A stretch of DNA of 57,704 bases, filler included, from Basidiobolus ranarum (taxonomy: Eukaryota): NCBI GenBank assembly GCA_040143965.1. It is 4 parts of 4 records of this genome, joined end to end, with 100 filler letters (N's around TTAATTAATTAA, not from the genome) between each part and the next. Parts side by side here need not be neighbours in the genome. Positions count along the whole stretch, not along the records: positions 14,478 to 28,840 come from JASJQH010000428.1; 3 more parts are not named here. The stretch is one strand, 5' to 3'. The notes beneath the pieces are model-generated. The model saw nothing but the letters and a program-made list of their open reading frames with translations. It was not told the DNA's origin and made no database searches. A program made the position numbers and the translations under genes. Positions within the stretch are counted from its first letter, which is position 1, and each line of letters starts with the position of its first letter. Shown here in pieces: positions 945 to 55,065 of the stretch.

Positions 945-3557
945 ATGTAAGAAGTGTTTTTTGCCATTCTATTTTGGTTGAGTAATTATTGATCTTTGCT
1001 CTTTAAATAATTCAGGTCACGTATCATTGTGAAGAATTTACCCAAACATTTCAATGAAGACAGATTTAAGGAGCACTTCTCAACACAGGGTGAAGTTACT
1101 GATGTGAAGTTAATTCGTACACCACAAGGGAAGAGTCGTAGATTTGGTTACGTCGGTTTTCGTACCGAAAAAGAAGCCAAAGCTGCTGTTCGACACTTCA
1201 ACGAGACTTTCATCGATACCTCCAAGATTGTTGTAGAAAAAGCCATACCGTATGGTGATTCCTCGCTTCCGCGTCCTTGGAGTCACCATAGTATTGGTTC
1301 CACAGGTTATTTTCAAAGGACGGGGATAAAACCCGAGGAAGCTCAGAAGGAAATGGAAGAGAAGAAGAAAAAACGCCAAGACGAGTTTGAGAAGGAATTA
1401 AAAAAGAAGCAGGAACATATTGAAAGTGTGTACAAAGAATTCGAGAATGATAAACTCAAAGAGTTCTTACAAGTTATGCAGCCTAAGACAAAAACCAGGA
1501 CCTGGGCTAACGACGACATGAAACCCGAGACTGAAATTCCTAAAGTTAAGACCAATGTTACTGCTGTAAAATCTAAGAAAGCTGGTGGAGAAGGAATTCT
1601 CCTCACCAAGACCCACGTAAAGTTTGATGATAGTGAGGATGAAATGTATGAGGATATGCCAGTCAAGTCTACTGAAGACGACGACAAGATGGAAATCAGC
1701 GTAGTAGTTCCAGAACAAATGCCAGAGATTGACTCTAGTGTCTCTGATCTAGATTGGCTAAAAAGCAGAATGACCATGAAGCCCGAAGATGAGGAAGAGA
1801 AGTCTGATGCTTCTGATAATGAGTCTATTTCTAACTCAAAGAAGGATCAGGATTCCGAAAGCGAAGCCGAAAACAATGTAGTAACAAGCGCCGCTGTTAA
1901 CGAGACTGCACCTGCTCCAGTCAATCCAACTCAACCGGCACCTACTACTGGTACTAAACCTAGTGATCTTCCCCCTGCTCGTCCCTTTGAAGTACCTCCG
2001 GCCGAACTGATTGCCGACACTGGTCGCCTTTTCTTGCGTAACTTGCCATATACTTGTACTGAAGATGATCTCAAGAAACTCTTCCACAAGTTTGGACCTC
2101 TTTCTGAAATCCATATGCCAATCGATAAAGAAACCAAGAAGCCCAAGGGCTTTGCTTACATTTTGTATCTTATTCCTGAGCATGCCGTTAAGGCATTCTT
2201 CGAGTTGGATGGAAAATTCTTCCAAGGTCGTCTTCTACACATTCTTCCAGCAAAAGAAAAGCCCCAACCTCCTAAGGAGGACGAAAGCAGCATGTCAATC
2301 AAAAAGCAAAAGGAAGCCAAACGCAAGGCGCAAAGTGGAAACGATTTCAATTGGAACAGTCTGTTCATGAGTAGTGATGCCATCGCAGACTCCATTGCCG
2401 ATCGCCTGAACGTTGCCAAGTCTGACATCTTAAACCCTGATGCTGACAATCTTGCAGTTCGTATGGCCATGGCTGAAACCCATATTATCACCGAAACCAA
2501 GGATTACCTTGAAGAGCATGGCATCTGTTTGGATGCTTTTGCCAAGAAAGAAAGAAGTGACACTGTCATTTTGGTCAAGAATATTCCATTCGGAACGGCC
2601 GAGGAAGAGTTTAGAGAACTCTTTGGCAAGCACGGATCATTGGGCAGAGTTTTAATCCCACCTGCCAAAACCATCGCAGTTGTGGAGTTTCTGGAGCCAA
2701 GCGAAGCTCGTGCTGCTTTCAGACATTTGGCTTATAAGCGTTTCAAGAATTCATTGATTTATCTTGAAAAAGCACCTGTTGGTGTATTTAAATCCGAATA
2801 CAACGCTGACGCACAAGCCGAAGTTAAGAAAGCTACCAAATCCTCCATGGAGGAGATTACTCAACCCGAAGAGGAGGAGGATCTGGACACAGTCACGCTC
2901 TTTGTCAAGAATCTTAACTTTGATACCACAGAGGAGTCTCTTCGTAAAACTTTCGAAGGGATTGAAGGAATGCGTGCAGTACATATCAAGACCAAGCCTG
3001 ATCCTAAGAACGCTGGTAAGAAACTATCCATGGGCTTCGGTTTTGTAGAATTCGCCTCTAAAAAGGCTGCACAAACTGCTCTGAAAGCTCTCCAAGGTGT
3101 TAAGTTAGATGATCATACATTACAACTTAAATTATCCGATAAGAAGTCTATTCACGAGCCCACTGGTCACCGTAAATCCACCTCTTCAAAGAAAGAAGGA
3201 ACCAAACTTTTGGTTAAGAATATTGCCTTCGAAGCTACCAAGAAAGACTTGCAACAATTGTTCAGCAACTATGGTCAACTCAAGCATGTTCGCCTTCCCA
3301 AGAAATTCTCTGGTGGCCATCGTGGTTTCGCTTTCGTAGAATTCTTGACGAAGCAGGAAGCTAAGAACGTAATGAACAACTTGGCTAGCACTCACTTGTA
3401 CGGTAGACATCTTGTTATTGAGTATGCGGAAGAAGAAAAGAGCATAGAGGAGATGAGAGCCAAGACCGAGAGAGAATACTCTAAAGAAGAAGCAATGAAT
3501 CCTCACAAGAAACAAAGAATCATGATGCCTGGTGAGGAGGAAGAAGAGGAGTTCTAA
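945..3557 (+). CDS. MRD1: Multiple-RRM pre-rRNA processing protein Mrd1/RBM19
   Basis: Five RRM-like domains (RNP1 motifs RFGYVGF, KGFAYILY, MGFGFVEF, RGFAFVEF) and the conserved linker FNWNSLFMSSDAI..AVRMAMAETHII. Splicing AT(945-946) across intron 947-1015 to G gives the typical MSRIIVKNLP start. Confidence 0.95.
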
Positions 3558-9667: not shown

Positions 9668-12600
9668 TTACTCCGAAGTATGTTCTTTACGAGATCGATA
9701 AAAGTTAAGGTTTCCTTGAAGAAAGCTCCAGAAATGTTTCAAAGATTGTCTAAATTGAATGCATGAATGAACGTTAAGTAATTATCCAAGAGAGAGATCA
9801 CTGAATATACACATGTATACCTTCTTTCCGGAAGCATTGGGTACTAGGGCGGGAGGAAGCGCAAGGTGAGGGAGAAATAAAACAAATAGCATAGATAGAA
9901 TAAGCAGTGGATTTCGTGGCATCATTTTCTAACCAAATACAAGCTTACCTGAAGTTTGGGAACTGGCTTGATCATCTCTCCAGTTAGAAGACAGCGAAGG
10001 ACATACAGTGAGAGATAATGGGATCTCATTTCTTTTAGTAGCAACGAGTATTGAAAGAATACTGACATAATGGGTATTGGCATATTTCTAACAAACAAGT
10101 AGGTGATCTTTTTGGGATGAGAAGACGGTGGGGATGCAACTCTTTCATTCGACACTACACTAGAGTAAGTTCTCTGCTTTCCACGATAACGAATATCCAG
10201 ATTAGATGGCTCACTCACTCGCTCCCGATGATAAGAAGTAAGAGAGACAGGTTTAGGGGCTTGAAGGGTATGATTCCCATCTTTGACTGATTTCTCTCGG
10301 TTCGCACGGGAGTTACTCGCTCTGGACTTGGTACGTTGTCGGGGCGATTTGAAGGTTTGCTTTAATCGATCTAGTATGAGAGAGAATGGCTTCTTTCGAC
10401 GTAAAATATAATTACTATCGCAAATATCTAATTTCAATCCACCTGGTAATTTCTCCGGATCCAATATACGAAGCATGATGGCGAAGATAGGAAAATGATT
10501 CAACAACGCCAATAACATTCCAAATCCAATTTGCAGAAATACCACCCCAAGTCGTCCCTTTAGAAGACATGGTTAATGCTGGTTCAATGGTTACTTTCAC
10601 TATTCTTTGGTTACCGTTAAAAACGTCAGATAATACACCACAATGGTGGGAAATAGGAAGGTCAAAAGGGTAAACAGAATGGTTCCTATCAACAATTGGT
10701 CCAATCCGTAATCACATGAGTCGGTTCTGTTACGTAGTGGATTGTACTTCTTGCCTAGAATGTCCTAATAGTTAGATCTGAACGAAAGTTGTCAACATGC
10801 TGGTGAACTCACCTCGGAAGAGATTAAACAGAGAGTACAAAACTGAGAATTGCCAATTATAGATTCGTGCTGCCACCAGATAAAACCAGTAAATATGAAG
10901 TGTCAATAGCGACAACAGATCTATCATCAACGCAAGAATCATCGAACATCCAAACACCCCGAACAGTCCGATCACGGCAATGACAGCGGGGATCAATGGC
11001 CTCATAGGGACGATACATACTACACAAAAGAAACCATTGGCCCATAGTTCTAAAACATCAACACTACAAGTGAGCATTTACCTGACCACAAATGAATCAA
11101 CCACAGGAAGAGCTCTCCAAGGAACTTGTCTAATTCACTGTTCAGTTTGAGTCCAGCCGGCCATCCCATCAGCCATACCATCAACAGCTCGAGGGATGAT
11201 ATCGTATAATGCTACAGGGACATACATGCTTAGTTCCACCGTTGGTTTTTTGAAACATACGAGTGTTCTTACGTCTAGATTTTCCATTAGAAACCGCGTC
11301 ACTTCCACACTGTTGTTGATTAGAAAAGTTCCCACTGCTACACCGAACATGATATCATTGGCTACAAGCCACATGCTGTTGTAGAAGCTGAGGAAAAGCA
11401 TAGTGAGAACGGTGTATCCAATCTACTGATGAAACCAAGGATAACATTACTTGATGTAGTGAGCTCGGGTGATATCGGAGTCGGACCATCTCTTTTTCCG
11501 TAGTGTACTATATTGCCATGGCCAGAAACAAGCCAGTCGCAGCCTTAGATCAATCTGTTGACCTGGAAGGAGATCAGTCATCGAATATAGATTGGGGGAA
11601 TAAGTGGGAATTATCTGGTATACCTGTGGCTGTCAAGTCTTTCAATGAGGCTCCATTGAGACACCACTTGGGAAGATGAAGGTTGAGAAGTGTTAAGAAA
11701 AGCTCAGCTAATACGCGTGCAATAAACAACACAACCCACAAGGGCTGTGCAAACACTAAGGTAAGGACTTTGGACGCGATGGTGACAAATACGGATACCC
11801 ACGAGTCTAGCACTCGAAAGACAGAAGACATCCAGATGAATGGTCTACCTCGTCTGGTCAACGAGGCTTTCTTCGGGCATCGACGTTTTATGCAACGCTC
11901 GATATCGAACGAAGAATTGATCTGATTGGGTTAGTTCACAGCAGAGATGTCAAACGAAGACAAAGCAAGATCTTACTTGATTTAGAACCACATCCATATC
12001 ATCGTCGCCAGAATTTTCATTAGGATGGGTGCCACGCTTGTTAGGTAGCATGAAATTCTTGGCTTTCTTGGTTATCTGAGCGATCTCATTGTCCACATTC
12101 ACATCTTTACTCGCTTTCGTATTCGCATCCCCATCTCGTTCAATGTACTTGGAGATGTCAAGATCGAGTGGCTGATTAGAGAGATGTTGAAGATGGGATG
12201 GATCGGGCCGTTTAAAGAAGATGATCTCTGAACTTAAACTGTGGTAGCGATAACCACAACAATACACCGATCTACAACAGAAGCCGCGGTTAGTAGATCA
12301 AAAGGAACTTCAAGTGGGTTGGACGTACCGAAGAGTAGGCATTAGATTCTTCTGCATCTGTATCGTAACCCATAAGTTCGCAGTCTGTTTCTTTTCAATG
12401 ATCCCTAGAAACAAGCATCAGTAACTCTGAGTCGATAAGCTCTTCCTATGGCGAGAGAAAGGGTACCTTTGTCGTTAAGAATCCCGTTCGGGTCCTCTTC
12501 ATTCTCATCCATCGACATAAACACCCCAATCACACTCGGTGGAACCTTACATAGATCTAGCATGGTATCGTACTCCGAATAGCTTTCCGACGATAAATTC

Positions 12601-14377: not shown

Positions 14378-14477
14378 NNNNNNNNNNNNNNNNNNNNNNN
14401 NNNNNNNNNNNNNNNNNNNNNTTAATTAATTAANNNNNNNNNNNNNNNNNNNNNNNNNNNNNNNNNNNNNNNNNNNN
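14378..14477. other. Artificial contig spacer N44-TTAATTAATTAA-N44
   Basis: Exactly 100 bp; the core has stops in all six frames; identical to the other two spacers. Confidence 0.99.
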
Positions 14478-17400
14478 CTATGGCTGCCTTATCTGTTACT
14501 CTTACCCCCCGGCTCCAACCGGAAAATAATTTTGTTTATCAGAAATTATAGTTCTTTGGACCAATGCATTCATATGTAATCGATTACTTGTATAAGAGCA
14601 CCTACGGGGAAAGACAAATAGAATGGTTTAACGAGGATGTGTTAGATCTCTTCCGAGCTTCTCTTACCTTTCTTTCGGTCTGCTGTTGCGATGATCGCGA
14701 ACTGCAAGGTACGGTTCTCATCCAAAATATCGATCTTTTGTTAGAGCTTGTGTCCTATGATAAAAGAATGACAGCACCGTTGATCGACATCTTTTCCAAG
14801 AGCGTAAACCTATGCTTGAGGGTAGAGGAGCGTCATATGCAACGACTACTTGAGCTTTCACAGGGTTATCGTGGTGAATATCTTTGCTTACTTCGAGCCT
14901 TAGTAAAGGTTTCAGGAAAGATCATCAAACGAAATCAACTTTATATTGCCGATTTACTGTTGGAAAAAAAAGATGAATATATAGTACTTGAGGCAGTTCA
15001 AGACTCGAAATCTGAATCATATCTCCATCCACCTCCAACTTCGTACCAAGCAGCATTGATCGATTTAATGGCTACTTGTGCTGAGGGAGAAAACAGTCTT
15101 CAATCCATCTTCCAATCAATCCTTCCCGCTAAGAAAGTCTTGGATGCGTTGGTTAATCAGAAGGCAGATTATTTGATGGAAAGATCGTATTTACGCTTCT
15201 TTATCGCTGTTTACCTATGGACCAGTCGACAAGGAACCACGGGTACTAGTTATATATTTGAAAATCCATTAATTTGGACTTACGTAGGAAAGCTGTGCAA
15301 CTTGTTGACTTCATTTAACCAAGACTTAAGAAATCCCGATATTCATGAAGATGACGTAGAGATAAGAAACAAATCAGCATACGTATACGAGGCGATTCTG
15401 ATATTTTTGAGACTGTTATTTGATATTTACTTCTCATCTCAAAAAAGTCCAGTCGCACAATTTGACGTCGCTGAAGATCGGAAAGAATTAGGCAACCGAA
15501 TTGTGGATGAGTTGGCGTCATTTGCAGAGTTGCCACCAAAATGTTCGAGACATTAGAAACACCTTATCAATTGATTGGATACACTTATTGTTTATGCAAG
15601 TCTATACGGAGATAAAAAGAAGACAGTATCTAAAGCGCTTTACAACTCTCTGAGAGTTGCTCAACCGCAAAGAACTAGGGTCGAAAGTTTATCCTCTGCA
15701 TTAGGTCAATTGAACAAGAACTTCCAGGAATTTCTCCATCGAATCATAACTTCCGGTAGAATCGTGGACTTGGAGAAAGAGGAATTCCGCCAACTAAGTC
15801 TTCATTTTCCATTAGAAGAATTTCAAACTCAAGGGGAATACTCCATCGTCTCATTGGTAGAGTATCTGTCCGGTAGACTGAACGATGTAGAGGATTTCAG
15901 AAAGGAATTGTACGATATTCGTACAATGAGGATTTTAGGAAATCTTGTCACCAATGTCACAGATGAGATCGACCAAATTCATTACTTGGATTGTCCCTTG
16001 GACCGGGTCCGGTTACAGAAACGAAAAACCGAACTTCAAAATAAGTTGAATAGACTGGGCTGTACCCTGATGGCAGAGAAACTTCTGTCCTCGAATAGCC
16101 AACAAATCTACATTAGTGCCATGAAGTTATTGAATGCCATACTCGATGGTGGTAACAAGAAAGTTCAGGTGGGGATTGGAAATCATCTGATTTATTTTAT
16201 CAGCACTCCGACTTGTATTAACACTTCCTCTTAGGATACTCTTGAGAACTATTTCTTAGGATCAAGGTAAAAAAACGGCCTAGTAACTATCGATTCAATT
16301 TGTAGGTCTTTTTTAAACTCTATTATTGACTTTAGGGTAGAACGATTCTTTTACTGCGTCCACCATAAGTTACGAGAAGGAATTCTTTCTCTTCGTAAGG
16401 CTAAAGAGCTACTTATCATGGATGCTAAAAAGAGAGAGAGAAGCTCCACCCTCTCGTCTAAAATCAGACGCAGGCTACGAGGTCATAAGAGTGGACTCTC
16501 TGTTAGTACATCAACTTTTTTGAATCAGATACTCTCCCATTCAGACGACGTTCCCATCATAACCCTTAATTCGTCACTTCCCAAGGAAGACAACAAGATC
16601 TCCAAGTACCTTCAGCTTGAGGATAAGTCAGATCTCGGCACCACCGCCCAGGATTTTGAAGCAATTTGCCATCTTATGAGATTACTACAGCTGATGGTGG
16701 AAGGGCACAACTACAGTTTACAAACCTATTTCAGTGCCCAGGGCGATAACATCAAAAGCTTCAATTTGGTTACTGGTGTAGTTGATTATTTACATGCGAT
16801 TGTGCCTATTACTAGTCTTCAAGATGAAAATTTAATTTTCCAAACTATGCCAGTTATAACTCAAGTGTTCGATACCATTATCGAAATGGTGCAAGGGTGT
16901 ATCTCAAATCAAGTAAGCATTTTCAATGCCAAAATCGTTCAATCGGTCAATATCATTCTTCGTGAACCTTTTCATCAATGCCCCGCAGAACAGGCAGTAG
17001 AACTTAAGGGGAAGGCGGTCTTATGTCTGTTAAGTTTACTAGAGGGAGGAAATATCGAGGCTAAATCAATCTTTAGAGAAATGGCTAACACCCTAGATCT
17101 AGATACTGTCAATCGTAATTTACGAAACTTGTTTGAACAGAGTAAAAATGACACTTGGAAACCCGGGAAGCAATCAGCTATCGACTCAGGGTTTCTATAT
17201 TGTATGCTGATTATGACATTGTTTCCTGCGCTTACTAAAGAACAGCAATATCGCTTACAAAGTGAACCTGCATTCAGCTTCTTTAAGAGGAATACTGGAC
17301 AAATTGAGATTATTCGAGAGCTCTCGCCTGGTGATAAGAGGGTAGTACCTGTACTCTTCCCAATCCCGGAGGTTTGTAGATATCTGCGGGAGGATACAAA

Positions 17401-19072
17401 AGAGCATTTCCTTTGGAATGTAAAGAGAGATTCGGCAGATGTCAAGATTGAAGATTTCGTCACTAAATCTGAGGATATTATATATGAAATTGAAAGTCAA
17501 GCCAGAGTTGCTAGAAATCATTACCTCTCAACGCTGTCTGGATACCATTCTTTGTGGTGGCAGGGGGCCTATTTGATGACACTCTTACTTAATGTTATAG
17601 GACTAATGTGTGCAACGGCTCCAGAAAGTACCGCCGTCAACGGCACTGGGAATGGTGAATTGTTTTTAGGATATGGATGCTATTGGTTTACAGAAACACT
17701 AAGGATGTGCTTTGGATTAATCCACCTGTTGCTCTGGATACTTTCTTCCGGGGAGTTTCTACTTATTCAGCTGCCAATTCTTATCAATAGAAAACGATTG
17801 GAAAAGTCAAATCAAATAAGGAAGCAGAAGGCCAAAGAAGAGGCACATCTACAATCACTTGAAACTGGCTTTATGAATGATGAAGAAACCTCGGATGTTC
17901 ACCATGACAATTCAACTGATCCATTCAATGTTCTTCTATCGGAGGGAGATACTCTTTCACCATCTGTAAGTTCAGTTTTGCTTACTGCCTCTATGACTCA
18001 TTGATTTATCTGCTAACAATTTTATTGCCTAGAACTTGATGGAAAAAATCTTGTATTTCATCACAGAACCCAAAGCACTTTATCATGTGTTTATGGTTGT
18101 ACTGTCTGTCGGTGGTATTCGCTACCATATGTTGTATTCTATCCACTTGTTAGACTTCATATACAGAGATCAAATACTTCAAGGAGTCATTGCCAGCGTT
18201 ACTGTCAATATCAACTCCTTAACGAAAACGGTAAATATTCATTTCATTGTAGTTCTTCAACATCTCTCCCCATAGATGGCATAGCCCTGGAAAAGAAATA
18301 AGGCTAACTTCGTATGAGCGTCTAGGTTTTACTCGGTGTAATTATTGTATATGCGTACTCAGTTGTAGGATTTGTTTACTTCCGCCATTCTTTTGACAGT
18401 GAGCAAGGATTTTACTGTGACACACTTTTCGATTGTTTTATTACCGTCCTCTCTTATGGGTATGTTTATCCTTGATCTCTTATCTTTCTAAATCTTTCGG
18501 TAACCCATTGAATATGATTCTTAACTAGTATTCGAGCAGGTGGTGGATTAGGAGACGTTCTACAAGCCCCTGTACATGGAGATAATTCATATGCTTACAG
18601 AATTGTCTTGGATTTGTCTTTCTTCCTTATTGTCATCGTTTTCCTTCTCAATGCGATCTTTGGTATAATCTTTGATACATTTGGTAGTCTAAGAGATGAG
18701 AGATCGTCCATACAGAATGATATGAAGAGCGTGTGCTTCATTTGCAACATCAGTGCTACCGAATTCCAAAAGCATGCCAAAGGATTTGAACATCATATCA
18801 AGCATGACCATAATATTTGGCAATATCTATTTTTCTTGGTTCATTTAAAAACGAAGGACGTCACAGAATATACTTCCCAAGAATCTTACGTAGCGGAGAT
18901 GCTGAAAGACAGTGATTACAGTTTCTTCCCGGTGAATCGAGCGTTATGTCTTCGTCAACGAGAAAAACACGATGATCAACGTATTGCCAACTTAGAAGAA
19001 ATGATCACTAGTCTTAACACTCGCATTGAACAGACATCCATCTCACAAACAACGAAATCCAAACATTATTAG
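14478..19072 (+). CDS. Inositol 1,4,5-trisphosphate receptor / ryanodine receptor family Ca2+ release channel, C-terminal part; 5' truncated, contains in-frame stops (possible pseudogene)
   Basis: RIH-like LIDLMATCAEGEN; LQNKLNRLG..LLNAILDGGNKKVQ; RIH-associated LMRLLQLMVEGHNYSLQTYF..FNLV and IIEMVQG..NQ; GQIEIIR..VLFPIP; pore CDTLFDCFITVLSYG|IRAGGGLGDVL; S6 LLNAIFGIIFDTFGSLR; Zn finger CFIC..HHIKHDHN; TEYTSQESYV. Confidence 0.93.
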
Positions 19073-20175
19073 CACATATAAGTGACTTCACTTTTCTTAC
19101 TTTTAATATACATATGATTTCTCATAAACATTTAAGGAGAATTTCCGACTTCTGTATTAATATGTATACATTATAGTACTATATACAAATTTACACAGAA
19201 AGGAACCACTCTTGCAGCTGTACACGTTGTATTTCTCTTGCTCTACTTCTACAATCTATTGATCGAGTGACAAGTATTCCAGAACAAAATTCGTTGGTTT
19301 GCTGAATAAATTTCCCGATCATCAACATGGGTTAGAATAGTGACTAGTCAATTATCAATAAGTAGTCGAATAATCCATTGGGAACCTTGAATTCGACGAT
19401 TATTTGATTGGTTCTTTGTAAAAATTAACTTATAGTGGTGGAGGTATAGTAACTGAGATTAATCAGAGAATTCACTGGAATATGTCTATTTAAACTAATA
19501 TGCGCTTCACTATTCTGTGGGTTTTGAACAGAAAATCGAGAATTTCCGAAACCCTCACAATCATAGCCCAGGCCAGCCCAAGCAAGGCAAAAATATGACA
19601 TGACCCATTGCTCAATATTAGGCTTGATGACATGAGACATGCTGACTTAATCTAACTGAAAGGTCATCGATATAGCACCAAGAGTGAAATACTACATACA
19701 TATATCTGTTACGAAATTCAATGAATTACTATACTACAATAAAATACCCACTTGTAGAGCATATGATTCATCTAATTACTCCCCAAATGGACGAATCCTG
19801 AATCGACTTCGTGAATCCGATGATGTATTATATTGGAAGCATGAATTATGTGACGCAATTTCATCCACATTTCCCCCTAACTTTAGTCGCTATCAATAAG
19901 GATTTGCAACTAACTTGGAAATAGACTGTCATCCTCGGATCACGTGACTCGACGGTTACTCTAGGTGGTGGAATAAAAGAAGGAATTTAAATATACAGTA
20001 CATAATAAGCACACGATCATTTCAAACATCAGCGATAGGAGTTCAAGTGTTTACTATTCACACCATCACCGTCATCTTCAAGTTCATTTAAGAAGTAATG
20101 AAAGGAGAATGTATATAAAAGAGAGGTCACTCTTATCATCTTAGAATCATTATTATCCATCATCATCTTACTATC

Positions 20176-20545
20176 ATGTTCACTATAACCAACACTGCCC
20201 GCCCTTCCATTCAAATATATAACCGATTTATCTCGCTTACACCCCGTTTCTATGCTGGGAGATTCTCCTCTAATATGTCCGATAACGATCCCGATGTTCT
20301 AGAGAAAGAAAAACAAAAGAATCTACGCGGTGAAACCAAAGGAACCATTAAAAATCATCCAGGATGGAATGAGAAATTAGCTAGTCATTCGGAAGCTAGT
20401 GTAAGTAAATCCACAAAAAGTCTCGCCAACCTAACCCATCTAACTCACACTATTATCTTAGGTCAAAGCAGATCGTACACCTGAAGTCCCTGCTGAGCAA
20501 ATGCAAAAGGAAACGGTCGAACACATTAAAAATAACAACAAATAA
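20176..20545 (+). CDS. Small conserved fungal protein of unknown function, probably mitochondrial (2 exons)
   Basis: Arg/Ser/Thr-rich N-terminus lacking acidic residues (presequence-like); GWNEKLASHSEAS|VKADR motif across GTAAGT..TAG intron 20401-20461. Confidence 0.7.
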
Positions 20546-21403
20546 TTACTCTTTCCTTTGTACCCTGTGAATAATAAATACTATCTCTTATTATTCTACC
20601 CTGGTTAACGAGAATGGTCACAATAATATAAATCATAAAAAATTGTTGTACTTCTACATGAACTTCGAAGTTCCATATGTAAATAACTAATATGAAATTT
20701 CACAACCACTACACATATCACAATTCAATTATTTGGATTTCAATGATTTCAGCGTTATATAACTCCAACAAGTTACACGAGGGGATGATCAGGGCCCACG
20801 CATAAAGGCATTGAAGCTGGTGGATTGGCATAAACATATACTTTTGTCTCTTAAACGATGGGCAAGCCTAGGAATTCTCCTTGGACAGTTATATCACATC
20901 TTGTAACTTTTTAACGATTATAGCGTAGTTTAATAACTATATAATGCATGACCTTCTCACTCATTAAATCCAATGGTATCAAATCACATACATACATGGT
21001 TGTTTACTGTAAATGATTTCTGATAACATATTATAATTTCATTTCCGTAGAGCAAGATTGTATATGTGAGGAGCACCTTTATTCTGTAGAAAATCAAGAT
21101 ATTTAGATGTCAATTGGGGCTAATACATACAAGGTACTACTACTACTACCACATCTAGGACCTTTAAAAAACTCGACCGAGTGTTTTGACTCATCATTAA
21201 GCATGATAAGAAGATGGCCTGTGAAAATTCATTATACAGTGTGGAAGTTACCAGTCTAACTTGTTATGACGAGATGAGATAAAGGCCTCTTAGCACGCTA
21301 TTGTGAAAAAAGATCGGTTTGAGATATCGAATGTGAGTGGACTTTCTCTCGGTCGTTACTTTGGTGACTCGAAATATGTTGAGTGAAGATGGATTCAATT
21401 GGC

Positions 21404-22333
21404 TTAGTAGCTAACTGAAAGTGCATTTTTTTTAACTTCTTTATGATGTGGCCCACAGTAAACGAAAAAGGTGTAGACAATTCCGCCCAAGATACCGCCT
21501 ACTATGGGACCCACTATCGGCACCCAAAAGTAATAATTATACGCTGTAAAACTTTCCCTTCCCCAGCCAGCGATGAGTAAAAATAACCGTGGGCCTAGAT
21601 CACGAGCGGGGTTGAGAGCGTACCCGGTCAAGTACCCAGTACTTATCCCAATTACCATCAATGTGAGACCTAGAAATATGGGAGCAAACTCCACCAAATT
21701 ATGCCTTTTCATATCTTCAACTGCGAATATAGCCATCACTAAAACCGAGGTAGACAAAATTTCTGTCCATACTGCATTTCCATTGTTAATGAAAGGTAGT
21801 GGGTATGTTGCAAAAAACCCGGCTGATCCTAAATCTCCAGTCACTCTTCTTACACCCCCATCAAAATTGTCAATGGCCGGATAGAATACACTGTAAACTA
21901 ATGCGGCTCCAATAAACGCTCCGAGTATTTGGGAAATAATATAGCCAGGTACTTTGCGAAGGGGGAATCCTTTAAGTAACCACAACGCTATCGTTAAGGC
22001 AGGATTAAGGTGAGCACCTGATATCCCGGCATTAGCATAAATTGCAATACTGAAGGCGAAACCAAATCCGATATTAATGCTTAACCAAGACCCAGCAGCG
22101 CCTTTCATATTTACATGAACTTGAGTTACTACTGATAAGCCTAGAAACACTAATATAGCCGTACTGAAGAACTCTGCTAAGTAGCACCGATAAAGCGAAC
22201 GTATCTTTCCCCAAACTGGAAAATATTCCCCGTGTAAGTAAGCTTTAATCCCCAGATGCTCACTATGTACATTGCTGGGTTGAACCTCTGGTGTGTCCAT
22301 TGCGACGATAGACTGTGGCTGGTTATAGTTCAT
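21404..22333 (-). CDS. Aquaglyceroporin (MIP family, GlpF/AQP3-like), intronless
   Basis: ISGAHLNPA and GYALNPARDLGPR motifs, AGFFATYP loop, six hydrophobic helices, YFWVPIVGP. Confidence 0.95.
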   Translation of the reverse strand: MNYNQPQSIVAMDTPEVQPSNVHSEHLGIKAYLHGEYFPVWGKIRSLYRCYLAEFFSTAILVFLGLSVVTQVHVNMKGAAGSWLSINIGFGFAFSIAIYANAGISGAHLNPALTIALWLLKGFPLRKVPGYIISQILGAFIGAALVYSVFYPAIDNFDGGVRRVTGDLGSAGFFATYPLPFINNGNAVWTEILSTSVLVMAIFAVEDMKRHNLVEFAPIFLGLTLMVIGISTGYLTGYALNPARDLGPRLFLLIAGWGRESFTAYNYYFWVPIVGPIVGGILGGIVYTFFVYCGPHHKEVKKNALSVSY

Positions 22334-23433
22334 GTGGATGTGTTGAGAAATAGTCGGACAAAAAGGTCGATTAAAAGAAATGCCAGAGCTTTGGCTTATA
22401 TACCTCCATCTTGATTAACAATTTCTCTAGTAGCAGTGAACGGAACCCAACTAAACGTTTAAGTATATGTTTGAAATTTTCTGAATCAAGTTTAAGGCCC
22501 ATCAGGAGAGATGAATAATCATTTTTGAATTTTTTTAGACAATTGCTAGAGTAGCGTGGAACCAACACCACTATAGATAGTCAAATATTGAGCATCTCCA
22601 ATCTCCCCTGCATATTTTGCACTTGGAACCATCGACATAAGGGTAGCCCTTGCTACTTTCAAGGACGAATAAATCCTTTTTCAGAAGAGAGTAATTAGTG
22701 CTTCGTACCTAACACCAGTACCACAGGATTGGCGTACTATAAAGAAAGCAATTTACAAATACGAAATATTGACTTCCTCTAACATCATTAAGAGCACGAC
22801 TTGAACACTACAAATCTACATATTCTTCGTCTCTCTTTAGGTTAAAACCCTGTATGTAAGCACATCAATCAAGCTATATTGAGTGAATTTCAATGTGGCC
22901 AGCAAACACGCCATAATAAATCGCCATCACATGAACGTGCAAATGAATTAATGTTCATCAATTTGAACATCATCCCAGACCTTTACTGCTTCATCTTCTC
23001 ATTACTAGTGGCATATAGTGCAGACCCAATGTTGCTCAAGACTTTCCCTTGATATTAAAAATGATGTACTCCCAAAGAGAATGGCTGATAGTGAACAGAT
23101 GTTTGGTAAACACTCATAAAATCTACGGTATTTGTGGATCTAGCGAAGCTCAAAGTTCAAGGGAACCAATATCGTTCGACACCTCTGTTAATTACACTTG
23201 ATTTTCACGAAATATACGCGAGATATTAGTGCTACACTAACTTGAAAGTACTGGCTCTCGTAACTGAGAATTCCATCGAATCCATCTCCTAAGAGGATTC
23301 AGCAAAGCAAGACCATGGTAATTCCTGTTTCAATGGGAGGGGGAGAAGGGATCTACAGATTAAAGGGAGAAATATTTATGGAATTCTTTTATTGGGTTCT
23401 AAAAATATGTGGAAAGCCTCGTTCCGGTTAATA

Positions 23434-24795
23434 TTAGGATTGATTTTCATTCTTCAAATTATGCTTCCACATGATATTCAATTCCGCTCTAGCTTGTTGG
23501 ACTTTCTCAACCCAATCTTCCCAGAGTGTTTCGTTATCTGCTACGAGATTTCCACCTACCTCTAGCAGCTTTAATGATGGAGCAAACCCGTTGATCAGAG
23601 CCTCACATGTTAAAATGAAACTTTCGGTAGAAATGTTGTTACATCCAAGGTCCAAAGTAATTAAATTTTCCAAAGGAGTTGAAATTTCGGTATTAGGTAA
23701 TCCATTGGCGAAGTCTACTTTGTTATTGAATAGTCCAAGATATTCAAGTCTTTCACAACTTAATAATGCCTCGAATCCCTTGGTGGTAATTTCGTTCTCA
23801 CCAAGCTCGAGTTTCCGGATGGTTGACTTCGACTCGGAAATAGCTTGACTGATGTATTGAGCCCCTTCATCTTGGATTTTATTACTACGAAGACGAATTT
23901 CATTAAACTGGGAGTGCTTGATAATTGTAGAGAGATGTTTTGCCCCCTCTTGACTGACTCTACAACCATCCATCCAAAGGCTACGAATCTGAAGTGTAGA
24001 GGACTCGCCAAGTGATTCCGCTAGTGTAGCAAGCATAGCATCTCCTGGTGAGCTTCCAATAGTTTGGAAATCTTCAGATTCTTGTTCGATGAAAGCAATC
24101 TTTAATACAGTTAAATGCTGGTTTCTACTCAATGCTCTGGCTATTTCCGAACCACCTTGAGAACCCAAAGGATTTTCTGAAAGTACAAGCTCTTTTAACT
24201 GGACTTTGTCCTCCACTAAAAGTTTACCCAAAGAGACTGAACCCTTATAGGAGATCTCATTTCCAGATAAATCTAACTTCTCCAAAGTAACCTCTTGATT
24301 ATTTAACATCTCGCAGAATGCTTCCATGGCAGCGTCGTTGATCCGATTTCTTGACAGATTCAACTCAACGAGGTGCTTATTACTGGCCAATACTTGACCC
24401 AATAATTGGGCTCCCTTGAGTCCGATAGCTTTATTCTCAAGATCGAGTTGTTTCAAACCTTCGCATCTTTTTAAACCTTCACAAAGAATCTCAAAGCTGC
24501 GAACATTTTCGTCTTCACCGAAACTGTTGTGGCCAATGTTGAGTCGCTCAAGGGTTTTATTCACGGTTAATGTTTCGGAAAGTACCTTCAAAGTATCCTG
24601 CTCCATTGCGTGTCCCGAGAGATAGAGTTCTGATAAAACATGGTTCTTACTAAGAGCAGCAAATATACGTTGGAAGTCTGGTTGACTAATTCGTCGAAAG
24701 CTAAGAATGTGCAGTGACTTTAAAGTAGGTTCATTGTTTTCTAACTTCTTGACCCAATCGTCAACAGGATTTGGTCCAGGATTCCCCCAAGCCAT
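23434..24795 (-). CDS. RNI-like leucine-rich repeat protein, intronless
   Basis: Repeated approximately 28-residue LxxLxLxxNxI units (LERLNIGHNSF, LVELNLSRNRI, LEKLDLSGNEI, LKELVLSENPL, IRKLELGENEI). Confidence 0.88.
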   Translation of the reverse strand: MAWGNPGPNPVDDWVKKLENNEPTLKSLHILSFRRISQPDFQRIFAALSKNHVLSELYLSGHAMEQDTLKVLSETLTVNKTLERLNIGHNSFGEDENVRSFEILCEGLKRCEGLKQLDLENKAIGLKGAQLLGQVLASNKHLVELNLSRNRINDAAMEAFCEMLNNQEVTLEKLDLSGNEISYKGSVSLGKLLVEDKVQLKELVLSENPLGSQGGSEIARALSRNQHLTVLKIAFIEQESEDFQTIGSSPGDAMLATLAESLGESSTLQIRSLWMDGCRVSQEGAKHLSTIIKHSQFNEIRLRSNKIQDEGAQYISQAISESKSTIRKLELGENEITTKGFEALLSCERLEYLGLFNNKVDFANGLPNTEISTPLENLITLDLGCNNISTESFILTCEALINGFAPSLKLLEVGGNLVADNETLWEDWVEKVQQARAELNIMWKHNLKNENQS

Positions 24796-25022
24796 AGTTA
24801 AATAGCTATTGATGGTTAATGATAAAGATAGACCAACGTCAAATAACAGTGATACTAAGGGGTGAAGGATGGTAATTTTTATTTTTTTTTATTTGATAAA
24901 ATTCTAAAATTGATGAATTCCATTGATTTCAATATTTAACTTTTTTATTTATACTCATTTATATTGAGAAAAAATCTATTATGTGGTCGACACTGACAAA
25001 GCAACGGATAAAATACATGGGA

Positions 25023-26028
25023 TTAACTTCCCCACCAAGAAATCAAACCAAGTCCATCTTCTTGTATGGAGCACTAAATGGATGGAGATATTAGATATTC
25101 AGAGTCATAATCAGTCTAAACTAATCATACAAGTGGGTAACGAACTTACCAAGAGTGAGTAAGGTGGTTCTAAGAGTTTGGGCTCTACTGGGTTACTGCT
25201 GTTATGCTTGTTTTTAGCATCTGGAATGGGTGTGGCGTCTACAAACATTTCGTCAATAACGCGTAGTCTAATCGTCTCATCCACATCCATGAAAAGCTCG
25301 TTTCCGTCAAAACGCCATACCCAGACTTGCTCGTTTTGATCACTATCAATAGATAGGTTAGCTTTTCTATCCACATAACCAACAAAAATATGGACATACG
25401 AGTACTTACAATTCCGTACTTTCTTGTAATAAGGCTGAGGGAATCAAAATATCATCAAAGAAGCCAAGCGATACTAAATATTCGCAACTGTATGAGAAAT
25501 CATCCTGCTACATATATCGTTGATACAACGTGCTACTGACCACTAACACCTTCAGCACTACAGCTACGAATTTTTCCGGTTATCACCTCACCAAGGAAAG
25601 GTCTGAAAACAACCAACCGGAATTTCACTAACATATACAGATTTGGGTAAGAAACCTGCTTTACAGGAAAGTATATTACGCGACCAATCTACACGGATGC
25701 ACATGGTGAGCAAAAGGTATACCTTTAATATAGCTACAACCATCACTATGATGGATAAAACCTTCACTAGCTTCGAGAATGTCGTGTAAAGATATACATA
25801 AACCAACACCATGAACGACCTTTTGTTTAACATACAAAAGAAAGTGCCAAAATAGCATGGACAATGTTTTAAGTTAATAAATGGTTTACTTCATAACAAT
25901 ATCACTTGAAAACAAACCTTGTTGGCGTATTTCTTGTTGATTTCGTCAGCTAAGGCATCATTTTTGCTTTTACGAAAATTTTGAGGAACAGTCTTAACCG
26001 TATCTTTAAATACGGATAATATAAACAT
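25023..26028 (-). CDS. RPC25: RNA polymerase III subunit Rpc25/RPC8 (multi-exon)
   Basis: MFILSVFKDTVK..EINKKYANK|VVHGVGLCISLHDILEASEGFIHHSDG, FRLVVFRPF.GEVITGKI, SLGFFDDILIP, EQVWVW and C-terminal EDGLGLISWWGS*. Confidence 0.94.
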
Positions 26029-27309
26029 ATCTCGAAGTAAAGGCGAAAGCGAGGTCGTTGAATATTCTATGAATTCATCTCGTACTTGCAAAATAGGATA
26101 AAAAAAAATTCCGTTTTTTCCACACTTGCTAATATAAAGAGGGATCAAATTCATTGATTGGATGGTATTTTTCCAGTTTATCAATACCCTACAAGTAGAG
26201 TGAATTTTCTTCGACTAAATTTAGTGATAACTTACCTGAGTTATATACAAGTTTCTACAAATTGTAGAGAATGTCGTTTCAAGGAGAAGCAATCCCTTTC
26301 TTATATCTATCTAAGAGTACCACATAGTATGTAGGAGTATTCGGCTATTTTCAATTCGTTTCCTAAAAGCCTGTCAACGAAAGGCATCGAATGCTTAGGA
26401 TATTTTACTCTCTATTGAAAGTCTAAGGTGGTCATCATCCTCATGACCCTTGGTTGTCTTGGCATAGATAGGTAGAGCTTGGAAGTACTCCTATGAAATC
26501 CATGTGGAGTTTATTCTGGAAAAGAACAATGTTATCTACTTTATATTTAGCTTATCATCTTTGATTAAATGCATGCATTTACAGATGTTCCAGGCTACTC
26601 CTTATAGATTAAATCCTAGCAGTTAGAATTATAGTTTATCCGTGTTACCTGAAATTTGCTGATGCTATGTTTGGACCATGAGTTTCTTATTCTGGCAAGT
26701 GAGAAACACAATTATGCAGGTTGACTCATTTGAAAAAGTAACAAGAGATAGGTTTCTTGTGGTGTTATCGTTCACACTAGGACCATTTTCACTAACATAG
26801 TTAGGTTATGGAGTCATTAGTAAATGATGGATCTATTAGATAAGATATACCAGAGGTCCAACTAAAGTGGATGCAGAAATGTAACAATATAGACAAGAGA
26901 CTGATTAAGATGATCAAAAAAAGCCTACTGTCGTATGATTGCTCAAATATTTGGCTCTAGTATTCTCTATATTAGTATCATCCACCCTGCGATGTACGTC
27001 GTATCAATCACGAGTAGTAATGGCAAATATCGCTTGATGTTTATGTTCATGTTGTAACTCGAATCTCTATCTCAACCTATTCCAATCATAGCGTTGAATA
27101 CTTCTCAGTTTCATCTGGATTTCTTGATATGAAGACCTTGAGCTTATAATTGAAACTAGGAATTTATTAGAGAATAGGGAATAAAAACGAACTGGGGAAT
27201 GGGACTCATACTGGAGAGAATGGGTCACTTCTAATTCTAAAGAGAGGGTCGAAGAAAACTAATCGACATAAAATAAATTGGTATAATAAAATTGATGATA
27301 TGCATTAAA

Positions 27310-28840
27310 TTAAGACATCTTCTTTGAAAACAGATCTCTAATTTCTTCAAGGCTCTTGCCCTTCGTTTCGGGTAGTAAGAAATAAACGAATACCCAACCG
27401 AGGCAAGCAATACCCGCATACAACCAAAAGGTTGCTGCCTGAGAGATAGCCTCAGTGAGTGAGAGGAACGTCATCGAAATAATCAAGTTGAATATCCAAT
27501 TGGCCGCGGTAGCAATACCTGAAGCTTGTCCACGAATGGATAATGGGAAGATTTCACTTTGTACAACCCATGGAATGTTACCTAATCCAAGGGCATAAAA
27601 CGCTACAAAAAGTATCAAACTAGCCAAGGCCAACCAACTAGACCAGGGTCTGGAGCCATCACATACATTGCTAGCTAAACCTGGGAAGCTCGACAAATCA
27701 ACACAAGTGTTCTGATAAATTCCACAACGGCTATCAGAAGTGCAAACTGCACATGCACTTCCATACTCGGCGCATGTATCAAAATGGGATGGGATTCCCA
27801 ACAAGAAATAAAAGGCAACACCAAGCAAGATCAAGAATGCGGCCATACCTGTAATGGTATTCAATAGGATTTTTCTTCTACCAATCTTGTCAATGAAATA
27901 CATAGCAACACCTAATTGAAATGAAGTAAGAGCCAACTCTACCAATGTTCAACTTTAAACTGTTCAAACCTGTCATGGCAACATTGGAAGCGGAAACAAA
28001 AATGGAGAACCAGATAGCACTTCCATCACTAGTGAAACCGGCCATCTTAAGAATGGTCGCTGAATAGTACATAGCAGTATTGATTCCGGACAATTGTTGG
28101 AAAACTTGGAGTCCAACAGCGATGATCAATGGGCGGATATTCTCTCTGCTGAACACCTCAGTAAGTCTAGCGGTGTCGGATAATGTGCTGCGTATAGTGG
28201 CAATTTCATGTTCGATGATACGCACAGGAACATTTTCACCCAGAATTCTTTGCAATACTTTTTTAGCTTGGTCCAGTTTCCCTTTGCGAATTAAATGGCG
28301 AGGGCTTTCGGGAAGAATCAACATACCTAAATTTTTGCATTAGTAAAGGCTACTGGTGAATAGGTGCTATTAAGGCGTCAGTAATTACCAAAAAACTGAA
28401 TGAAGGATGGAATTCCGGCACAACCGATAGTGTATCTCCAACTATCTGTAACATCGTGTGCAGCGTAACTGATGATATTAGCAAACAATTGGCCACCAGT
28501 GATCAACAAAACATTAGCTGCAATTAAAGTACCGCGGATACGTCTGTAGAAAATGGGTCAGTTTGATTCAATTACTCTCGTTACATTACAATTACTAACC
28601 TGGGTGCTATCTCTCCGATGTATACAGGAACTACCATACTAGCTAGACCAACTGCAAAGCCCACCAGTACTCTCCCCGTCAAAAGAACAGCATAACTGTG
28701 CGAAAAGGCCATAATGATAGCACTGACGGTAAAGGTCACAGAAGAGAAGAGAATAACCGGTTTACGACCAAACATGTCACTGCATTGCCCAGCAAACAAA
28801 CCACCGATAATGGCACCTAGAGTGAGACCTAAAATAAAGT
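27310..28840 (-). CDS. MFS sugar porter, myo-inositol/H+ symporter (ITR/HMIT-like); 5' truncated
   Basis: SDMFGRK, VPVYIGEIAP|RRIRG, LPESPR, FQQLSGINTAMYY, IDKIGRR, IPWVVQSEIFPLSIRG and LPETKGKSLEEI; introns explain the ORF breaks. Confidence 0.9.
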
Positions 28841-28940
28841 NNNNNNNNNNNNNNNNNNNNNNNNNNNNNNNNNNNNNNNNNNNNTTAATTAATTAANNNN
28901 NNNNNNNNNNNNNNNNNNNNNNNNNNNNNNNNNNNNNNNN
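28841..28940. other. Artificial contig spacer N44-TTAATTAATTAA-N44
   Basis: Same 100-bp structure as the other spacers. Confidence 0.99.
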
Positions 28941-37431: not shown

Positions 37432-37965
37432 TTAAGCTATCAGTAGCACGCTTACACTGTGACGTCCCAGCTTGTGGAACCAAGGGACTACGTGGCGTGA
37501 CTGCTGGCTCGTTATGGTTACATCATCTATCAGCAATTGATCGCGGTCAACATGACGCTCCAACAACTTGAGATTCCTTAAATTAGCCTTGAAGTATGCG
37601 TCCAAAGCATCTCCTAGAATGAGAGTGATTCCTAGCAGCCAATCGAAAAAAATATTCAGAAACATGCGTATCTTTATTGAATAAGGTAGACCAAAACGAC
37701 AAGAGAGAAAGAAAAGATATAAAGAGGCAAAGAGCCCAAAGAAATCTACAATTACTGGAATAAGCCCACTGACAACCTCGTAACCAATACCAAGTGGCAA
37801 TGACGGATGTTGGTCTAGCCACAGAGTTACCTTCCGAATATGACCCATAAGCTTTTTTACATTCTTGGCATTCATCTTTTTCTTCTTATTCTTTTGTTTG
37901 TTTCTTGACTGCTCGCCATTATCATTCTGGGTTTGCGGAAGAGTCTCTTCAGTTCGATTAGCCAT
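37432..37965 (-). CDS. DUF4112 family membrane protein, intronless
   Basis: WLD..IGYEVVSGLIPVIVD..RMFLNIFFDWLLGI..GDALDAYFKANLRNLKLLERH pattern. Confidence 0.8.
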   Translation of the reverse strand: MANRTEETLPQTQNDNGEQSRNKQKNKKKKMNAKNVKKLMGHIRKVTLWLDQHPSLPLGIGYEVVSGLIPVIVDFFGLFASLYLFFLSCRFGLPYSIKIRMFLNIFFDWLLGITLILGDALDAYFKANLRNLKLLERHVDRDQLLIDDVTITSQQSRHVVPWFHKLGRHSVSVLLIA

Positions 37966-38649
37966 TTCTTAGAAAGCAAACTCATATTCAACCTCTACTA
38001 CAGCTTTATATAGCTAGACGACTTGGTTTATCCGTTAGAATAGGAGTTGCTAGCGCTTTGCGATCATTTAGTTTCTCTTGGCTCTCTGTTGAGGTTTAGA
38101 GTGACATCATAGTACTGCATTATGTGTAAATTCATACATATCTTCGTATCAAGCGCAGGTCTTCGATGGTGCTTATGATGCTAGTTCACACTAGAAATAA
38201 TCAAGCTGAAACTTGACTGCAGATTGTGACCCTTGTTTGGCAGAGTCGATGGTTGATATCCTCATGAATGTGCAAGTCTGGTATTTGAAGTGATATCATC
38301 AATATTTAAACAAATGGACGCATCTTTGATTAGATCAGTCCATTGAGTCACTGGAGGAGTGCTACAGTGCTGATAAGAATATGGATGTCGGACCGCATCC
38401 CAGTCACTACAGAGCCAAATATGGGATTGGTAAGTCAGTATAAACTACGCGTAAGATTTTTTTGCTATCAAGCATGGCTTGTCGGTCCGAGATTCTGCAG
38501 ATACACTAAGATTTCCCTTTTTCGGATCCAAACGGTTACGTAGATCTATCAAATCATTAAGCCTTAAATTTAGTGTCTTTGTAGAATTCCTTTTTTGACT
38601 ATTCATTTCGTATAAAATGAGCCATTCTCAGTGGACATCGTGAAGCAAC

Positions 38650-43283: not shown

Positions 43284-43383
43284 NNNNNNNNNNNNNNNNN
43301 NNNNNNNNNNNNNNNNNNNNNNNNNNNTTAATTAATTAANNNNNNNNNNNNNNNNNNNNNNNNNNNNNNNNNNNNNNNNNNNN
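43284..43383. other. Artificial contig spacer N44-TTAATTAATTAA-N44
   Basis: Same 100-bp structure as the other spacers. Confidence 0.99.
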
Positions 43384-53600: not shown

Positions 53601-55065
53601 TATTCTGAATCGGTTCTCCAAAGATCAAGCCAATTGCGATGAACTCTTACCATGGAATTTCTTTGATGCTGTTCAATGCTTCTTTATGCTATTGGGTTCT
53701 ATTGTAGTGGTCTGTATTGTCAATCCTTGGATCATCATTGCTTTGCCGTTCCTGGGGGCAATCTTCTACGCATTGAGACGACTCTATATGCTCACATCAC
53801 GCCAAATCAAGCAAATCGAATCCACTACTAGATCTCCCGTTTACTCTCTTCTCTCCGAAACTCTGGATGGATTAGCCACGATTCGAGCATTTTCTGCTCA
53901 AGACAGATTTCTTGATATGTTCATTACTGCTGAAAACGAGAACTGTAGAGCTTTCTTCATGTATCTTTGCTCGGCTAGATGGCTCGGTTTTCGTTTAGAT
54001 ATACTCGCAGCGATCTTCCTTACCATCACCGCATTTGCCTCTGTTGCTGCTAGACAAACTCAAACAGCAGGTCTGGTTGGATTATCTCTCAGCTACGTGC
54101 TGCAGCTTATGGGGCAGCTTCAATGGGCTGTTCGTCAATCTATCGAAGTGGAGATCACTTTTGTATCAGTTGAGCGTATGCTCGCTTATACTAAATTACA
54201 ACCAGAAGGACCACGCACCACCGATACTAGACCACCCAAGGATTGGCCGATCGATGCACAGGTTGAATTCAGGAACATGTCACTGACTTATCCCGGCTCT
54301 GACAAGCCTGTGCTTCAGGATATCAACCTCTCAATCAAACGTCATGAAAAGATTGGGGTAGTTGGGCGTACAGGTGCTGGTAAATCCTCCCTTCTAACAG
54401 CTTTGTTTCGCCTTATTGAAACCTCACCCTCCGGTTGTATTGTGATTGATGGTGTACCAATTTCCGACCTAGGATTGCATGATTTGAGAAAGGCGATCTC
54501 AATTATTCCGCAAGAGCCATTTCTATTCAAAGGCACGTTAAGATTTAATTTGGATCCATTTAGTGAACACGATGACCAATCAATCTGGAAAGCTTTAGAG
54601 CTGGCTGAACTCAAGGATACCGTAGGGAAATTAACCTCAGGACTGGATACCTTGGTAACAGAAAATGGGAAGAATTTCTCGATCGGTCAACGACAATTAC
54701 TCTCTCTTACTCGAGCTATACTTCGAAACACACGATTATTGGTGATGGACGAAGCGACAGCCAATGTGGATTTACAATCGGATAGATTCATTCAACGCTC
54801 TATTCATACTTGCTTTGAACATTCCACTGTACTCACCATCGCTCATCGTTTAAATACGGTCATTGGAGATTACGATAGAATCTTGGTATTAGATCAAGGA
54901 AAAGTCATGGAATTTGATGAACCTTGGAATCTATTATGCAATAAGCAAGGTTGGCTTTCCGATATGGTACGTAGTACCGGTTCAGAAAGTGAACTTGAAT
55001 TACGTAGAATTGCCAAACAACAGTGGGAGAGAGTACATGGTAGAAGTTGGGAGGGAAGTGTTTAA
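50646..55065 (+). CDS. ABCC/MRP-type ABC transporter (short MRP4-like, TMD-NBD-TMD-NBD)
   Basis: Walker A GPVGAGKT and GRTGAGKS, signatures LSGGQ and FSIGQ, Walker B ILDD and LVMDE, GRILNRFSKD; exon 1 at 50646-50986, intron 50987-51317. Confidence 0.95.

Follow-up and report, generated by a model that had tools for sequence, protein, structure and literature searches.

A Basidiobolus ranarum gene for an IP3 receptor-type Ca2+-release channel whose public model conceals three in-frame stop codons

The channel locus and its gene model

The window analysed here is a stretch of 57,704 nucleotides from Basidiobolus ranarum (GenBank assembly GCA_040143965.1) in which four contigs of about 14.3 kb each are joined by artificial spacers of the form N44-TTAATTAATTAA-N44 (14378-14477, 28841-28940 and 43284-43383, unstranded). 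Features on different pieces have no physical linkage. Our subject is the gene that opens the second piece (contig 14478-28840, 14363 bases), where the contig start cuts off its 5' part. On the plus strand, 14478-19072 holds about 1,380 codons in seven exons and represents the back half of a channel of the inositol 1,4,5-trisphosphate (IP3) receptor (IP3R) family. The locus is the 3' 55% of the B. ranarum gene K7432_008041, which specifies an IP3R-type channel, and the seven-exon model matches the corresponding NCBI protein (P0001, 1356 residues) letter for letter. By starting late and splicing out a weak intron, this public model passes over three premature stops. The sequence-only reading, too, had not noted them.

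All features of the gene lie on the plus strand. An in-frame upstream stretch (14478-14551) is homologous to the coding sequence of the paralogues described below and ends in TAG at 14549-14551. Exon 1 of the partial gene (14552-15528), with the public start Met at 14564, encodes ARM-repeat sequence with a sub-threshold second RIH match. It is followed by a 72-nt segment (15529-15600, GTTGCC...GCAAG), an intron in the public model, that contains TAG at 15554-15556 and TGA at 15572-15574. The ARM region continues in exon 2 (15601-16168; C-terminal end ...GGNKKVQ), and exon 3 (16235-16266) is a 32-nt micro-exon encoding DTLENYFLGS-. Exon 4 (16336-17965) carries RIH_assoc (16649-16957), the Ca2+-sensor motifs MVEGHN (16694-16711) and IIEMVQG (16877-16897) and the first transmembrane helices (17564-17785). 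The middle transmembrane helices are encoded by exon 5 (18033-18230) and S5 with the pore helix by exon 6 (18326-18459). Exon 7 (18529-19072) provides the selectivity filter GGGLGD (18539-18556), S6 (18614-18682), the zinc finger (CFIC at 18734-18745 and HHIKHDH at 18791-18811), DVTEYT (18857-18874) and the C-terminal helix, after which the gene terminates with TAG at 19070-19072.

Five introns of 66-95 nt were confirmed by collinearity with homologues. Their acceptors are all TAG and their donors are GTGGGG, GTAAAA, GTAAGT, GTAAAT and GTATGT, with A or G at position +3. Other arrangements were dropped when the alignment to homologues disagreed with them: a first junction at 15543-15611, a long exon 4 starting at 16306, and a direct splice across 16169-16335 that omits the micro-exon.

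Homologues and paralogues of the channel gene

A large protein collection was searched with the largest exon as the query, and 34 proteins were returned. The best four were from Basidiobolus: K7432_008041 itself (P0001; B. ranarum, 14363-base contig, 1356 residues, 99% identity to the largest exon), the intact B. ranarum protein K7432_003395 (P0002; 2502 residues, 88%), and the B. meristosporus proteins K493DRAFT_341790 (P0003; 2495 residues, 87%) and K493DRAFT_348021 (P0004; 2278 residues, 80%). These were followed by 24 more fungal proteins and one weaker fungal match, so that 29 of the 34 were fungal. The genera presumably belong to Mucoromycota, Entomophthora, Piptocephalis (Zoopagomycota) and chytrids. 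With the genera assigned in this way, none of the 29 fungal matches was a member of Ascomycota or Basidiomycota (Dikarya), in keeping with the distribution in early-diverging fungi that the sequence-only reading had given for the family. The Mucoromycota and chytrid proteins, for example that of Phycomyces blakesleeanus (P0007), share the family and its architecture and show 38-47% identity to the largest exon. A metagenome scan with exon 2 recovered only L001:376-435 (20 residues, 65% identity); it was rejected as a homologue and taken for a chance match, with no tblastn match to P0002, P0007 or P0015.

In a maximum likelihood tree (quick LG+G4; 26 rows, 1299 columns), the window gene and P0004 were sisters, with a Shimodaira-Hasegawa-like approximate likelihood ratio test (SH-aLRT) value of 100. 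This pair joined K7432_003395 and K493DRAFT_341790 in a Basidiobolus clade (SH-aLRT 100), which stood beside Entomophthora (86) within a fungal clade (100) that includes chytrids and Mucoromycota. Among the four Basidiobolus sequences, 38 site patterns favoured orthology, 10 grouped the sequences by species and 2 showed the third arrangement. Judged from these sequence patterns, the window gene is therefore paralogue B, K7432_003395 being paralogue A, and the duplication is older than the split between B. ranarum and B. meristosporus.

We give practically no credence to the idea that the contig is a non-fungal contaminant. The gene is 99% identical to a B. ranarum protein and 80-88% identical to three other Basidiobolus proteins, its tree follows fungal phylogeny, and its neighbours on the contig are ordinary eukaryotic genes. 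As far as protein phylogeny can do so, the best matches and the tree refute contamination, and the earlier attribution of the gene to a fungus was upheld.

P0002 and P0003 resemble the window gene closely (86% and 83% identity over 1,380 shared residues, respectively, with the same exon-level collinearity); they differ from it in reading straight through both the position of TAG 14549 and the 24 residues that correspond to the 72-nt segment. P0004, the orthologue, shares with the window gene its place in the tree and the absence of the same 24 residues from its model, whereas it stays open where the window gene has TAG 14549 and has extra gaps of about 90 and about 38 residues. The larger gap falls in the ARM region and the smaller one takes in a transmembrane helix; at the N-terminus the P0004 model is short by about 70 residues. 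It may be a poor model or a damaged gene, with the model threaded round lesions.

Between about 16880 and 17180 (residues 701-800 of the read-through translation), 99 of 100 residues agree with paralogue A from B. ranarum itself, while 94-95 of 100 agree with the B. meristosporus sequences. This stretch and the excess of 10 over 2 in the site patterns may reflect gene conversion between the paralogues.

The missing 5' half was sought by searching the N-terminal 1130 residues of P0002 against the shorter proteins. The sole match was K7432_007884 (P0035), annotated as 'partial', with 1054 residues on a separate contig of 14798 bases and 84% identity to the query. P0035 contains Ins145_P3_rec (69.8 bits), MIR (49.4) and RIH (66.5), and it carries paralogue-B-type residues in common with P0004. 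Because these paralogue-B-specific residues are shared, K7432_007884 and K7432_008041 are, to judge from their sequences, most likely the two parts of a single gene with about 2490 codons. Against this union, the link between the contigs is drawn from paralogue-specific residues, and P0035 ends (...IVVMHRL) about 85 residues short of the start of the window contig, a gap that is unaccounted for. The search that the sequence-only reading had proposed, for a contig with the N-terminal Ins145_P3_rec and MIR domains, has thus yielded a candidate.

Family membership

Pfam was run on raw stop-to-stop open frames of the plus strand, and whole models were scored separately. In the window, RIH_assoc (PF08454) scored 77.4 bits against a cut-off of 28.5, and Ion_trans scored 32 bits with the last exon alone and 57 bits with the whole model. 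RIH (PF01365) in exon 1 reached 18.7 bits (E 0.0014), below its cut-off of 22.3; outside the window it is well above threshold in P0035 (66.5 bits) and in paralogue P0002 (82.8 bits). The domains named from sequence alone are thus found for RIH_assoc and Ion_trans, and RIH is sub-threshold in the window. The six-helix C-terminal pore with its GGGxGD filter is present, GGGLGD pairing with GGGVGD, as is the zinc finger after S6 of the form C-x2-C...H-x4-H, in which CFIC...HIKHDH pairs with CFIC...HIKSEH of ITPR2.

Against PDB, the last exon (180 residues) matched ITPR2 (5.9e-44), IP3R1 (2.6e-42), IP3R3 (2.2e-40) and RyR1 (7.7e-36), and the largest exon matched ITPR2 (7.8e-18) and RyR2 (1e-10). 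A profile built from 14 fungal rows and one sponge IP3R-like row scored 1023 bits along the entire IP3R1 chain and about 450-480 bits against the ryanodine receptors (RyRs). On these sequence criteria, the window gene is a member of the IP3R/RyR superfamily, of the tetrameric intracellular Ca2+-release channel type. The original assignment to this family was confirmed by RIH_assoc, the six-helix pore, the zinc finger and PDB E-values far beyond chance.

The strict IP3R layout, with Ins145_P3_rec and MIR in a protein of about 2500-2700 residues, was found outside the window, in P0035 and P0002; the domains of paralogue A are Ins145_P3_rec, MIR, RIH, RIH_assoc and Ion_trans. The full-length paralogue has the domain order and length class of metazoan ITPR1-3 (PDB 3jav, 6dqj, 12ad), and the profile matches over the whole chain. 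With RyR1-3 the window gene has the pore, the zinc finger, RIH_assoc and the Ca2+-activation site in common, a likeness under which the fungal proteins would be gated by Ca2+ without IP3. Unlike the RyRs, which have about 5000 residues, the fungal protein is half as long, and no SPRY or RyR-repeat Pfam matches are listed for P0002, P0004 or P0035. An RyR type rather than an IP3R type was ruled out by this Pfam content and by the weaker RyR scores (8e-36 against 6e-44 for the last exon, and less than half of the profile score).

In-frame stops bypassed by the public model

The reading frame of the window gene is collinear with its homologues and is interrupted by three in-frame stops in coding-homologous sequence: TAG 14549, TAG 15554 and TGA 15572, where the paralogues have L, L and C, respectively. 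The stops at 15554-15556 and 15572-15574 lie in the same frame as both flanking exons. Across them the window reads ELPPKCSRH*KHLIN*LDTLIVYASLYGD and paralogue A reads ELPPKSPKHLKHLTNCLDTLIIESNLYGN, so that 15529-15600 is homologous to 24 coding residues of paralogue A. The segment falls in a motif, ..LAC LDSMIN .. GF.G, that is kept in most Mucoromycota, chytrid and Entomophthora homologues, and TGA 15572 stands at its conserved Cys.

The public model excises 15529-15600 as an in-frame 72-nt intron (GTTGCC...GCAAG). The sole alternative in-frame bypass of TAG 15554 and TGA 15572 is GTTCGA...CGGAG, and neither bypass intron agrees with the five confirmed introns in its acceptor or at position +3 of its donor. 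The first stop, TAG 14549-14551, replaces the Leu of the paralogue sequence QKIL|F, and the public model begins at the next Met, 14564. The 14 codons before this TAG are homologous in frame (shuffle p 0.0002 for P0002, about 0.005 for both P0003 and P0004). Reading TAG as a sense codon was rejected: the gene's own terminator is TAG, and it coincides with the end of three of the four Basidiobolus homologues.

The stops might also be sequencing or assembly errors, or mark one null haplotype, with the real gene intact. One of them does lie within 75 nt of the contig end, and the remainder of the gene looks constrained. Three separate substitutions would however be needed, with zero indel errors in 4.1 kb, and two of the stops fall in a segment that is likewise missing from the model of the B. 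meristosporus orthologue. We therefore regard such errors as a very improbable source of the stops.

Decay or function of the window copy

The two B. ranarum paralogues can be compared over the same time in the same genome. The window copy has 37 lineage-specific substitutions and paralogue A, which evolves more slowly, has 8 (chi-square by hand 18.7); on these sequence counts the window copy is the faster-evolving of the two. Taking the three stops together with this excess of substitutions and the poor splice signals in the bypass introns, we lean, without great assurance, to the reading that the window copy is a duplicate under relaxed constraint, disabled or barely working. The intact paralogue K7432_003395 would then carry the channel function.

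Several observations weigh against decay. The roughly 4.1 kb of coding sequence are free of frameshifts, and none of the five canonical introns is damaged. Sixteen other fungi share 284 conserved columns, from which the window copy deviates in 34; the corresponding figures are 31 for P0002, 33 for P0003 and 28 (of 268 columns) for P0004. Conservation along the window protein parallels that along paralogue A, and identity to paralogue A is 93-99% through most of the central conserved region (residues 501-900) and 90-95% in the pore (residues 1101-1300), against 68-82% where the protein is variable. Exactly the same 24 residues are absent from P0004, the model of the B. meristosporus orthologue, which suggests that the shared skip is old and tolerated. 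Furthermore, B. meristosporus singletons number 64 in B and 37 in A, and thus the B lineage did not evolve neutrally once the two species had separated.

These same observations can be read as evidence that the copy is fully functional, an account that we find plausible, though short of probable. The 72-nt stop-bearing segment would then be a genuine, recently intronised intron common to the B paralogues of both species, TAG 14549 would be spliced out (for example by GT 14495-AG 14551, 57 nt) or be an artefact of the contig end, and the channel would work without one helix of the ARM region. P0004 was deposited separately and from another species, and it skips the same 24 residues with identical boundaries. 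Retention of conserved sites (250 of 284) is close to that of paralogue A, conservation varies along the protein in the manner typical of selection, no frameshift occurs, and the singleton ratio of the B. meristosporus paralogues (64 to 37) points the same way. On the other side, a GTT donor marks each of the two putative introns and AAG closes the 72-nt one, features that the five sure introns lack, and the skipped piece carries the Cys and the motif kept in most fungal homologues. P0004 itself has gaps of about 90 and about 38 residues and a short N-terminus, and its model may thread round lesions. Stop-driven intronisation of the 72-nt segment, common to the two species, is possible. Relaxed constraint on the window copy remains the reading that we prefer.

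Channel core and IP3 pocket

The activating Ca2+ site of human IP3R3 is described as E1882 and E1946 together with the T2581 main chain, H1884 and Q1949 lying close by, and the ATP site by the zinc finger as C2538, F2539, I2559, K2560, H2563, N2564, M2565 and W2566, in the structural account given by Schmitz et al. 2022 (PMC8930994). In alignments with ITPR2, the window gene keeps the Ca2+-sensor residues: E and H of EGHN/ENHN, E and Q of EMVQG/EYCQG, and TEYT/TEYT. The sequence-only reading had picked out these residues as retained, and the alignments bear it out. The ATP site retains CF of CFIC and IK and HN-W of HIKHDHNIW, where Ile stands in for Met; thus C, F, I, K, H, N and W of the site in PMC8930994 are kept. 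The filter GGGLGD matches GGGVGD and the S6 motif LNAIFGIIFDTF matches LNLIFGVIIDTF. As in the metazoan ITPRs, the filter, S6, zinc finger, C-terminal helix and Ca2+-sensor E/H, E/Q and T are all present. Because the sensor, ATP-site, filter and S6 residues are kept, Ca2+ activation, ATP potentiation and Ca2+ conduction are well supported as predicted properties. With its sensor residues, filter, hydrophobic S6, zinc finger and ATP site, the channel core would suffice for Ca2+-activated, ATP-potentiated release.

Unlike the metazoan ITPRs, the Basidiobolus proteins do not keep the IP3 pocket; further differences are the sub-threshold second RIH and the three premature stops of the window copy. 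The pocket of IP3R1 is given in PMC13319452 as R265, R504, K508, R511, Y567, R568 and K569, and K508Q is stated there to abolish IP3 binding. The pocket was read in P0035 and the paralogues rather than in the window sequence, by a pairwise alignment of P0035 with rat IP3R1, a 25-row alignment with two animal sequences and a profile alignment, and the three analyses agree for all four Basidiobolus sequences. R511 is kept. R265 is ambiguous: the pairwise alignment places P there, and an Arg lies 2-4 residues upstream. R504 is V, K508 is D (N in P0004), Y567 is H, R568 is L and K569 is V, so that one, perhaps two, of the seven residues are kept. R269, which with T266-G268 also belongs to the pocket, is P. 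Over 23 fungal rows, the K508 position is basic in none, R511 is Arg in 20 and the K569 position is basic in 9, none of them Basidiobolus. Most fungal rows have NPL[DN]P[KQ]E[ST]DS, followed by ..FWEIE, in the loop of the N-terminal beta-trefoil where animals have RTTGR; the NPL[DN]P[KQ]E motif is common to the Basidiobolus and the Mucoromycota and chytrid proteins.

With most of the IP3-contacting residues lost, classical IP3 binding by the Basidiobolus proteins is doubtful, as far as their sequences can tell. Gating by Ca2+, possibly together with another ligand, would be more likely than classical IP3 gating. Two points count against this conclusion: the loss of the pocket is read from sequence alignment of loops, and the Arg 2-4 residues upstream could stand in for R265.

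A broader proposal, which we make tentatively and which may well prove wrong, is that the fungal IP3R-like channels, both Basidiobolus paralogues included, are not IP3 receptors and would form a separate Ca2+/ATP-gated branch whose pocket was rebuilt round the NPL[DN]P[KQ]E[ST]DS loop and senses another ligand or none. If this were so, the IP3-evoked Ca2+ release described in fungi would be left without a known receptor. That the gene instead encodes a true IP3-gated receptor, in an animal-like pathway from PLC through IP3 to Ca2+ release, seems unlikely to us. Such a receptor would fit the complete order of IP3R domains seen in the paralogue and the presumed other half, the whole-length profile match to IP3R1-3, the Arg at R511 in 20 of 23 fungal rows, and the survey of Merenyi et al. 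2023 (PMC10406608), which in outline has the IP3/diacylglycerol/Ca2+ pathway retained to the Mucoromycota-Dikarya split. It is hard to square with a K508 equivalent that is basic in 0 of 23 fungal rows (three Basidiobolus rows have D there, P0004 has N), at the very position where K508Q is stated to abolish binding (PMC13319452). The P, V, L and V that Basidiobolus has at R269, R504, R568 and K569, and the NPL[DN]P[KQ]E[ST]DS loop in place of RTTGR in most fungal rows, also speak against it. The animal-like IP3 pathway that had been proposed for this lineage is thus not supported as written: P0035 and all four Basidiobolus sequences keep only R511 and maybe R265.

Place among described fungal channels

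A study on human pathogenic fungi (Prole and Taylor 2012, PMC3410928) describes IP3R/RyR genes as absent from fungal genomes, and a statement in PMC7016017 counts IP3R among losses 'across several or all fungi'. Mucor species are said in PMC9694693 to encode IP3R homologues, and the retention of IP3/diacylglycerol/Ca2+ pathways until the Mucoromycota-Dikarya split is an inference of the survey PMC10406608. The Phycomyces protein is already named 'IP3 receptor' at NCBI. A literature search for an IP3 receptor in early-diverging fungi or in Phycomyces found nothing specific, and a search for Basidiobolus with IP3 found only PMC10406608, which is a general survey. The presence of the family in early-diverging fungi is already known and the protein is already deposited as a hypothetical protein; thus the locus adds little on family presence. 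The novelty first attached to it was overstated, the protein being in NCBI and early-diverging fungal IP3Rs being in print, at least in the statements of PMC9694693 and PMC10406608.

Of note instead are the ligand pocket, rebuilt in the fungal clade, and a coding segment that may have become an intron. With the Ca2+ and ATP sites intact and most of the IP3 pocket lost in the fungal homologues compared here, the name 'IP3 receptor' for them may be wrong. The stops hidden in the public model bear on counts of the copy number of Ca2+-signalling genes in comparative fungal genomics.

Neighbouring genes and the other contigs

The neighbours on the channel contig are all on the minus strand (21404-22414, 23434-24888, 25111-25443 and 27310-28339) and comprise an aquaporin (MIP, 191.6 bits), a leucine-rich-repeat protein, an RNA polymerase III Rpc25-like fragment and, divided between two frames, a sugar transporter. 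On the other three contigs, loci at 1011-3557 (+), 9922-10572 (-), 37432-37968 (-), 51283-55065 (+) and 55168-56091 (-) encode a protein with five stretches of RRM, a Gpi1 fragment, a DUF4112 protein, an ABC transporter and a Mug190-type C2 domain. The ABC transporter is full, with 1260 open codons.

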